Of a stretch of 64,000 bases of DNA, positions 57,100 through 57,310 are shown in pieces (within the stretch, counting starts at the first letter, position 1; each line of letters starts with the position of its first letter). The stretch comes from Escherichia coli. Lineage in GTDB: Bacteria; Pseudomonadota; Gammaproteobacteria; Enterobacterales; Enterobacteriaceae. Under the pieces are notes generated by a model, which made no database searches, was not told the origin of the DNA, and saw nothing but the letters and a program-made list of their open reading frames with translations. Position numbers and translations under genes: made by a program. The stretch lies in NCBI RefSeq assembly GCF_009931435.1, contig NZ_CP043414.1. One strand, given 5' to 3'.

Positions 57100-57106
57100 T
57101 GAATGA

Positions 57107-57134
57107 AATGCCGGATCTTGTATCCGGCATTTCA
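57107..57134 (+). terminator. Hairpin directly after tsx (probable terminator)
   Basis: aaatgccggat-cttgt-atccggcattt perfect hairpin just after the tsx stop; weak T-run. Confidence 0.55.
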
Positions 57135-57310
57135 GATTGTTAACAACGTGCGCTTTGTTCATGCCGGATGCGGCGTAAACGCCTTATCCGGCCTACAAAA
57201 ACACGTAAATTCAATACATTGCTGAGATTACGTAGGCCTGATAAGCGTAGCGCATCAGGCAATTTTGCGTTTGTCATAAAGCTCAAATAACGGATTTTGT
57301 ATCCGTCATT
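57135..57310. repeat. BIME-like cluster of REP elements between tsx and yajD
   Basis: Tandem REP motifs gccggatgcggcgtaaacgccttatccggcctac and gtaggcctgataagcgtagcgcatcaggc, plus a further hairpin acggattttgtatccgt followed by a T-run. Confidence 0.7.

Follow-up and report, generated by a model that had tools for sequence, protein, structure and literature searches.

What occupies the gap between the convergent genes tsx and yajD, and how might it have come to be there? The question arises from an Escherichia/Shigella-type chromosome segment of 64,000 nt (hereafter, the window), which is reversed relative to K-12 and in which the gap, lying between the tsx stop codon (57097-57099) and the yajD stop codon (57317-57319), comprises 217 bp; the names of both genes are taken from the RefSeq annotation at orthologous loci. 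An earlier note on this DNA described a convergent gap of roughly 215 bp, filled by a REP/BIME cluster with at least three REP-type palindromes in alternating orientation and a terminal hairpin with a T-run. The size, the convergent arrangement, and the presence of a BIME were borne out, but instead of a cluster the gap very probably holds one canonical BIME-1 (= RIB/RIP), a 152-bp non-coding, non-autonomous element situated inside the terminator of the locus, which is split and duplicated around it. The order within the gap is H1, A flank, Y REP, L linker, Z1 REP, B flank, and H2 followed by a run of seven T residues (T7); the features are as follows:

56215 to 57099, plus strand: tsx coding sequence for a nucleoside-specific outer-membrane channel, an ORF of 885 nt (RefSeq orthologues are also 885 nt), bounding the gap on the left.
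57104 to 57134, no strand assigned: hairpin H1, TGAAATGCCGGAT cttgt ATCCGGCATTTCA, with a perfect 13-bp stem (100% complementary; RNA dG -19.2 kcal/mol).
57133 to 57284, plus strand: the whole BIME-1, 152 bp, comprising A flank, Y, L, Z1, and B flank, delimited by end-to-end alignment with non-orthologous copies and missing in one piece from 1,596 E. coli genomes.
57133 to 57161, plus strand: A flank CAGATTGTTAACAACGTGCGCTTTGTTCA, a conserved outer motif of 29 nt, identified by alignment with other loci; it and the B flank make up an imperfect pair of terminal inverted repeats.
57162 to 57196, minus strand: Y-type REP GTAGGCCGGATAAGGCGTTTACGCCGCATCCGGCA (as read on the minus strand), in "iREP" orientation, its GTAG head appearing as CTAC at 57193-57196 on the plus strand.
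57197 to 57231, plus strand: L linker, 35 nt, its sequence conserved among BIME-1 copies; it contains the IHF-like core ATTCAATACATTG (57209-57221).
57232 to 57261, plus strand: Z1-type REP GTAGGCCTGATAAGCGTAGCGCATCAGGCA, 30 nt, with a GTAG head at 57232-57235 (dG -12.9).
57262 to 57284, plus strand: B flank ATTTTGCGTTTGTCATAAAGCTC, a conserved outer motif of 23 nt, intact in the window and shortened in the K-12-type allele.
57285 to 57315, no strand assigned: H2 AAATAACGGATtttgtATCCGTCATTT (57285-57311) with the T7 run (57309-57315), found by terminator scan and as a direct repeat of H1.
57317 to 57664, minus strand: yajD coding sequence for an HNH nuclease family protein (ORF and RefSeq annotation of orthologous loci), bounding the gap on the right.

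The REP strings quoted in the earlier note lie far beyond chance, since only 0.00-0.01 matches per REP pattern are expected in shuffled sequence, and the gap folds with z-scores of -6.96 on the plus strand and -6.83 on the minus strand, 0 of 200 shuffles being equally good. The pattern search proposed in that note did return matches, among them a Y REP that agrees at 33 of 35 positions with the published K-12 Y sequence GTAGGacgGATAAGgCGttCACGcCGCATCcGGCA (PMC2817692, Table 1), with one conserved upper-case position changed from C to T. It might be supposed that the palindromes arose in place as parts of a compound terminator and involve no mobile repeat, given that hairpins and a T-run are indeed found here at the 3′ ends of two convergent genes; this is scarcely credible, however, because copies of the 152-bp unit, 80-93% identical, are found at dozens of unrelated loci. 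Small ORFs of 40-48 aa within the gap (57103-57225, 57168-57290, and 57140-57286) cross REP sequence and were discarded as mechanical.

REPs are distinguished by a head tetranucleotide, GTAG or on the opposite strand CTAC, placed 5′ of the palindrome foot, and by an internal mismatch in the stem (PMC3333891; Y sequence, Nunvar et al., PMC2817692). The three strings singled out in the earlier note are all present, gccggatcttgtatccggc at 57110-57128, gccggatgcggcgtaaacgccttatccggcctac at 57163-57196, and gtaggcctgataagcgtagcgcatcaggc at 57232-57260, but only the latter two, with the CTAC and GTAG heads listed above, are REPs. The Y REP, 35 nt long, combines its head and its match to the published sequence with an imperfect palindrome in the 30-40 nt range, in which an internal loop parts an outer stem of 8 bp from an inner one of 4 bp (dG -21.3), and REP-containing queries are dispersed over a median of at least 40 places per genome in the E. 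coli collection. The second REP is nearly invariant in six copies from five loci (the only substitution is in the ybiA-rhlE copy) and is 7 nt shorter than the 37-nt Z2 of PMC2817692 (Table 1); its designation as Z1 is an architectural one, judged from the GTAG head, the imperfect palindrome, and the pairing with Y across L as in PMC3333891.

The first string belongs to H1, which differs from a REP in each of these respects: it bears no GTAG/CTAC head, its stem is perfect, and dispersed copies of it were not found. In E. coli genomes, the H1 region occurs at exactly one place per genome, always at the tsx end, and it is present even in alleles that have no BIME. Its stem has ATGCCGGAT and TATCCGGC in common with the outer stem of the Y REP, a resemblance that probably misled the earlier note. 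The possibility that H1 is a REP with an internal deletion was also considered and is ruled out by the single-copy status of H1 and its presence in the empty alleles. For annotation, this means that the first palindrome is to be left out of the REP count, which bears on the predicted transcript ends in the three alleles described below.

The same observations apply to the view that the gap contains a BIME-2-like array, i.e., three or more alternating REPs with gyrase binding and a variable REP copy number. BIME-2 and atypical BIMEs do resemble the tsx-yajD element in the Y REP and in the pairing of a REP with an iREP, and the palindrome-rich gap, together with the sequence shared by H1 and the Y stem, could be taken as a sign of such an array. 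Against it stand the headless, perfect, single-copy H1 retained in the BIME-less alleles, a related hairpin at the same place in Salmonella, and a count of just two REPs separated by a long L linker rather than by the short S linker of BIME-2 (PMC3333891), so that an array is very improbable. Moreover, Z2, short S linkers, tandem multi-copy arrays, copy-number polymorphism, and strong gyrase binding, which characterize BIME-2, were not seen at tsx-yajD, where a single Y-L-Z1 unit is found with no tandem copies and no copy-number alleles.

A BIME-1, by definition, consists of y and z1 in single copy with a long conserved L linker and a frequent IHF site (PMC3333891); it is about 140 bp long and is present or absent among isolates as a whole unit (PMC1187871), L being its conserved IHF-binding module (PMC3333891, PMC2817692). 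The tsx-yajD gap presents the same picture: one y and one z1 in inverse orientation make up a single, non-tandem unit with a long conserved L linker, and strains either have the entire element or lack it. The likeness to BIME-1, referred to also as RIB ("reiterative ihf BIME") or RIP ("repetitive IHF-binding palindromic"), extends to the IHF-type site in L, the length of about 140-150 bp, and the A/B flanks, and nothing essential is different, save that the window allele also keeps both copies of the target hairpin, half of which is lost in the K-12 copy. The conserved outer flanks are named A and B; A and the reverse-complemented B flank have 14 matching positions and constitute imperfect terminal inverted repeats. 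When read against the well-established IHF consensus WATCAANNNNTTR, the core of L shows one mismatch. The statement of the earlier note that BIMEs bind DNA gyrase and IHF can be retained in part: IHF fits the family, L having this core, while gyrase is not clearly applicable, as strong gyrase binding has been assigned to BIME-2 and atypical BIMEs rather than to BIME-1 (PMC2817692).

Over its full length the element aligns with non-orthologous copies at pitA-uspB, gldA, ybiA-rhlE, and yidB-gyrB, and it is 89.4% identical over 151 nt to the consensus of 28 other distinct BIME-1 loci recovered from metagenomes, a value in the mid-range of the family's own 63-93%. Of 5,426 complete E. coli genomes, 5,425 contain its core (the head-L-head junction), the median being 18 places per genome and the maximum 37. 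The BIME-1 at tsx-yajD is of an ordinary, already known kind, with an orthologous copy in K-12, and listings of BIME-1/RIB elements in E. coli go back to the early 1990s. In RefSeq, the feature table of K-12 has no repeat feature at tsx-yajD, so the K-12 copy is without a citable curated name, and the searchable literature contains no paper on a REP at tsx-yajD.

Could the main product of the gap instead be a small RNA made from the REPs and the linker, similar to naRNA4 or to ES036/CssrF, with the DNA-element and terminator roles being secondary? An Rfam E-value scan of 56000-58000 gave naRNA4 (a REP-derived RNA) on Y, with 40.4 bits (E 3e-5), and ES036 on the L linker, with 30.1 bits (E 0.002), along with AaHKsRNA41, snoU61, and NsiR1, and about 80% of E. 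coli REPs are known to be transcribed (PMC4550694). Every one of these matches is under its gathering score (59.5 for naRNA4 and 37.6 for ES036), and the two former reflect common REP and L sequence. In addition, a promoter scan of 56900-57500 found no promoter-like site within or beside the gap, so that any transcription would be read-through from tsx or yajD, and a small RNA as the main product is accordingly unlikely.

Comparison of E. coli genomes revealed three alleles of the gap, which are given below together with the segment that distinguishes two of them:

37-bp gap: the empty allele (e.g., ST131 strain EC958), a single hairpin followed by T6; 1,596 of 5,426 E. coli genomes (29%).
176-bp gap: the K-12-type allele, H1 and a BIME-1 with a shortened B flank, no H2; about 3,800-3,900 of 5,426 (~70%).
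217-bp gap: the window-type allele, H1, a complete BIME-1, and H2; 6 of 5,426, including WL297 and 2013C-4282.
57270 to 57310 of the window, no strand assigned: the 41-bp segment (B flank tail and H2) deleted in the K-12-type allele and in E. albertii, as defined by alignments, with boundaries ambiguous by a few T residues.

The between-strain variation is all-or-none: the whole element is present or absent and the number of REPs is constant. The comparison of REP copy number among strains, which the earlier note had advised, was thus an informative one. Since 29% of E. coli genomes do without it, the BIME-1 at tsx-yajD is dispensable. The K-12-type allele is most simply regarded as a 41-bp deletion derivative of the window type, because the full B flank, as found at other loci, is present in the window allele and absent from the K-12 allele. 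E. albertii has the same K-12-type deleted form at this locus, which means that the window-type allele is old and rare or that the deletion has recurred or been exchanged; put from the side of E. albertii, its deletion would be old, recurrent, or exchanged between species.

In the empty allele, the sequence is exactly that of H1 as far as CATTT, after which the T-run of H2 follows, and this raises the possibility that the BIME-1 is ancestral in Escherichia and that the 37-bp allele arose by its precise excision via recombination or slippage between H1 and H2. The empty allele is indeed the exact crossover product expected from H1 × H2, E. albertii is occupied, and Bachellier et al. reportedly wrote, in the abstract of a 1997 paper, of "excisions of a whole BIME-1". 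On the other hand, Salmonella and remoter genera have no BIME here, which requires an insertion at some point, and the empty alleles include B2-type strains (EC958/ST131). An ancestral BIME-1 with later excision may thus be considered a real possibility, though somewhat improbable; as far as the polarity is concerned, the sequence fits "never inserted" and "precisely excised" alike, and the empty allele could equally come from H1 × H2 recombination. The excision scenario concerns history alone and leaves the identity of the element as a BIME-1 unchanged.

The two hairpins flanking the element should be considered together. H1 (57106-57132) and H2 (57285-57311) are direct repeats with 85% identity. 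Relative to H1, one pair of the H2 stem has changed on both sides (C-G to A-T) and another has become an A·C mismatch, which is G·U on the yajD strand, and two adjacent pairs of the H1 stem are likewise compensated between the window and K-12 (A-T to G-C and T-A to A-T). Such compensatory changes in H1 and H2 suggest selection on the stems. H1 itself reads as the native terminator-type hairpin of the locus, namely the left duplicate, whose T-run would have been lost to the insertion, and not as a REP; this assignment draws on its single-copy status, its occurrence in the BIME-less alleles, the lack of a head, the perfect stem, the Salmonella relative, and the compensated pairs.

The terminal hairpin with a T-run, as reported in the earlier note, was confirmed and proved to be the sole match of a terminator scan of the region: a hairpin at 57290-57306 is followed by CATTTTTTTA, an A-rich stretch precedes H2, and the T7 run ends one base ahead of the yajD stop codon. 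A GC-containing stem-loop followed by a T-run, the usual mark of an intrinsic terminator, is thus found in H2, whose stem is weak on the plus strand (dG -7.1, vs -10.9 on the minus strand). H2 with T7 is likely to be a bidirectional intrinsic terminator, as predicted from these elements. Like known intrinsic bidirectional terminators, H1 and H2 have short GC-containing stems, H2 with the A-rich stretch upstream and T7 downstream, and the BIME-less E. coli alleles carry exactly one such hairpin at this position; the window allele differs in that the insertion has divided the terminator and left it in two copies, H1 being without a T-run and the H2 stem being weakened.

The gap was also examined in other taxa, where a pattern for the Tsx C-terminus yielded 109 loci, with yajD within 3 kb in 18 of them and Escherichia appearing in two, one of which breaks off after 135 nt. 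In Salmonella, the gap is 76-78 bp long and bears two hairpins but no BIME, and the related hairpin, ATGCCGGAcagactgcgcTCCGGCAT, is at the corresponding site in Salmonella arizonae and diarizonae. Kosakonia and Phytobacter have a single terminator of the A-run/stem/T-run type and no BIME, several Citrobacter species have a REP pair of their own species type beside such a terminator, and in Kluyvera the gap extends to about 480-497 bp. In one Kluyvera genome (L041), this gap harbors a toxin-antitoxin module of the ldr/rdl type, with a 35-aa Ldr-like ORF and an Rfam rdlD match of 62.6 bits (gathering score 50). Judging from the gap contents across genera, the ancestral state is a bidirectional terminator, and small selfish elements have colonized the gap independently in different genera.

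The history of the locus is best read as follows. A single bidirectional intrinsic terminator would originally have been common to tsx and yajD, and the BIME-1 would have entered just past the terminator stem, at the first bases of the T-run, whereupon about 27 nt with the entire hairpin would have been duplicated to both sides of the element. The left copy, H1, would then abut the element without a T-run, while the right copy, H2, would retain T7. The window would represent the full post-insertion state, from which the K-12-type allele would later have lost H2 and the B flank tail by the 41-bp deletion.

By analogy with the BIME-1 family, IHF would be expected to bind at the DNA level to L, between the two REP palindromes. 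Transcripts from tsx that pass H1, with its strong stem and poor U-tract, may read through the REPs and end at H2 with its U7, and for yajD transcripts H2 would be the first structure past the stop codon. The stacked stem-loops may shield the 3′ ends from exonucleases or attenuate convergent read-through. IHF binding, 3′-end protection, and read-through control are thus probable at this locus by family resemblance. The most fitting view of the BIME-1 is that of a selfish or neutral insertion accommodated by terminator function.

Hairpin duplication around a BIME-1 is seen elsewhere too. At pitA-uspB, a BIME-1 likewise lies between two copies of a locus-specific terminator hairpin, and the empty allele there has one hairpin copy and its T-run. 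The same pattern is observed at ysgA-metE when an occupied metagenomic contig is compared with empty E. coli, so that, together with tsx-yajD, three occupied/empty pairs display the hairpin duplication. The two flanks were compared at 29 distinct BIME-1 loci. At 11 of them the direct-repeat score reaches or exceeds the 99th percentile of a null built from mismatched-locus pairings, vs 0.3 expected, and at five it exceeds the null maximum. The flanking repeats are about 17-32 nt long, each spanning the whole hairpin, and they are bounded at fixed points: CAGATTG directly follows the left copy, and ...GTCTCA directly precedes the right one. The left copy retains 0-3 T residues; as judged by eye, a T-run comes after the right copy at most of these loci. 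Several copy pairs have compensatory changes between the copies. The possibility of a retro-type copy that brought the terminator of its donor along was also considered and is ruled out, as each flanking hairpin is specific to its locus and agrees with the empty allele there.

The flanking-duplication pattern itself is well supported and looks like structure-directed target duplication. This leads to the proposal that BIME-1 is a terminator-targeting mobile element that inserts, preferentially in one orientation, immediately 3′ of the stem of an intrinsic terminator and leaves a hairpin-spanning duplication of variable length, about 17-32 nt, a proposal that we put forward tentatively, rating it at less than an even chance. 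If true, cleavage would have to be guided by structure and fall to both sides of a hairpin that is extruded or single-stranded, or else replication would have to switch templates there; such a mechanism would be unlike both that of DDE-type MITEs and transposition of the no-duplication IS200/IS605 type, and the rare tsx-yajD allele of the window would be an intact "just-inserted" fossil.

How BIMEs spread has been described as still unknown (PMC3333891). With MITEs and with REPINs mobilized by RAYT/TnpA(REP), BIME-1 shares its small size, non-coding nature, imperfect terminal inverted repeats, flanking direct repeats, and occupied/empty polymorphism, and a REPIN likewise consists of two inverted REPs. 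However, DDE-type MITEs generate short duplications of fixed length, whereas the BIME-1 flanks are variable, about 17-32 nt, and span a whole hairpin; REPs have been reviewed as showing no MITE signatures (PMC3184786), and single-strand transposition of the IS200/IS605 type, discussed for RAYTs, involves no target duplication (PMC3333891). Hairpin-spanning duplications with constant element ends are a footprint that any model of BIME spread, be it RAYT single-strand transposition or a template switch at stalled forks, must explain. The searchable literature yielded no description of a hairpin duplication flanking BIME-1, but the key papers of 1993-1999 were beyond that search, and novelty of the pattern is not claimed, as it may be already described. 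The finding of a BIME-1 matters little in itself, and the flanking hairpin duplication is the only part that is perhaps worth more work.

Finally, two further observations relate to the window as a whole. Another REP pair is located at 42941-43034, and the lineage of the window is unusual in that its secDF segment has at most 98.7% identity to any complete E. coli genome in the collection.

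BIME-1 elements, the one in the tsx-yajD gap included, often lie between two copies of a terminator hairpin that is specific to the locus; the copies are diverged direct repeats of about 17-32 nt. The features of the window discussed here are as follows.

57106-57132 and 57285-57311: duplicate hairpin copies (H1 and H2), direct repeats on either side of BIME-1
57133-57148 and 57269-57284: terminal inverted repeat, CAGATTGTTGACAAAG versus reverse complement TGAGACTGATGACAAAC
57270-57310: 41-bp segment absent from the K-12-type allele
42941-43057: decayed BIME-like element, in which a Z1-like REP with 2 mismatches and a degenerate Y-like REP are joined by a 24-nt linker devoid of an IHF-type core; an A-flank-like motif in inverted orientation, TGAACAAAGCGCAGGTTGTCGCG, is also part of it

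Hairpin copies likewise surround BIME-1 at pitA-uspB (L009), at ysgA-metE (L159), and at ten further loci (L125, L131, L132, L133, L134, L146, L163, L175, L233, and L239), and the ends of the element are constant among these loci, with CAGATTG... at one end and ...GTCTCA at the other. When mismatched loci served as the null, the flanking repeat lay above the 99th percentile in 11 of the 29 distinct BIME-1 loci sampled. Three pairs of occupied and empty alleles bear this out, the empty allele carrying one hairpin in each. No description of this duplication was found in the searchable literature. At its outer edges BIME-1 has A and B flanks that form imperfect terminal inverted repeats, both in the window and in the 29-locus consensus, so that the entire element is one large imperfect palindrome.

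Two adjacent stem pairs of H1 (window 57110-57128) are changed on both sides relative to the K-12-type alleles (L001, which is K-12, and L004), the arms being GCCGGAT/ATCCGGC in the window versus GCCGGGA/TCCCGGC. Because the pair changes follow a compensatory pattern, the sequence comparison suggests that the H1 hairpin is under selection. The segment that the common K-12-type allele lacks relative to the window consists of the B-flank tail and H2, and E. albertii (L015) carries the same deleted form. The deletion common to both may have been inherited from one ancestor, may have arisen more than once at the T-rich breakpoints, or may have passed from one species to the other.

The copy number of the BIME-1 core (REP head, L linker, REP head) varies widely across the E. 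coli strains of the genome collection, from about 31-32 places in K-12-like genomes to 6-11 in those ST131 and other B2-type genomes that were listed. Occupancy of the tsx-yajD and pitA-uspB sites in the E. coli collection is also lineage-dependent. Among 5,426 complete E. coli genomes, none is more than 98.7% identical to the secF-secD-yajC segment (window 57700-60700); thus, the window lineage lacks a close representative among them and may belong to Shigella or to a divergent clade of Escherichia. The decayed element, the second BIME-like element in the window, lies in another convergent gap, flanked by ORFs ending at 42927 and 43055.

Finally, small selfish elements have landed repeatedly in the tsx-yajD gap. 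In Citrobacter species it contains a REP pair of their own. In Kluyvera the gap is about 480-497 bp long; in Kluyvera genomosp. 3 (L041, 7692-8171) it holds an ldr/rdl-type type I toxin-antitoxin module, with an Rfam rdlD match of 62.6 bits (gathering score 50) and a 35-aa Ldr-like ORF, MTLTEICIIVWHDLAAPTLVGIATGLFLGWWHSQR. The module was identified in the L041 gap; five other Kluyvera loci (L019, L063, L070, L096, and L105) have gaps of similar length.
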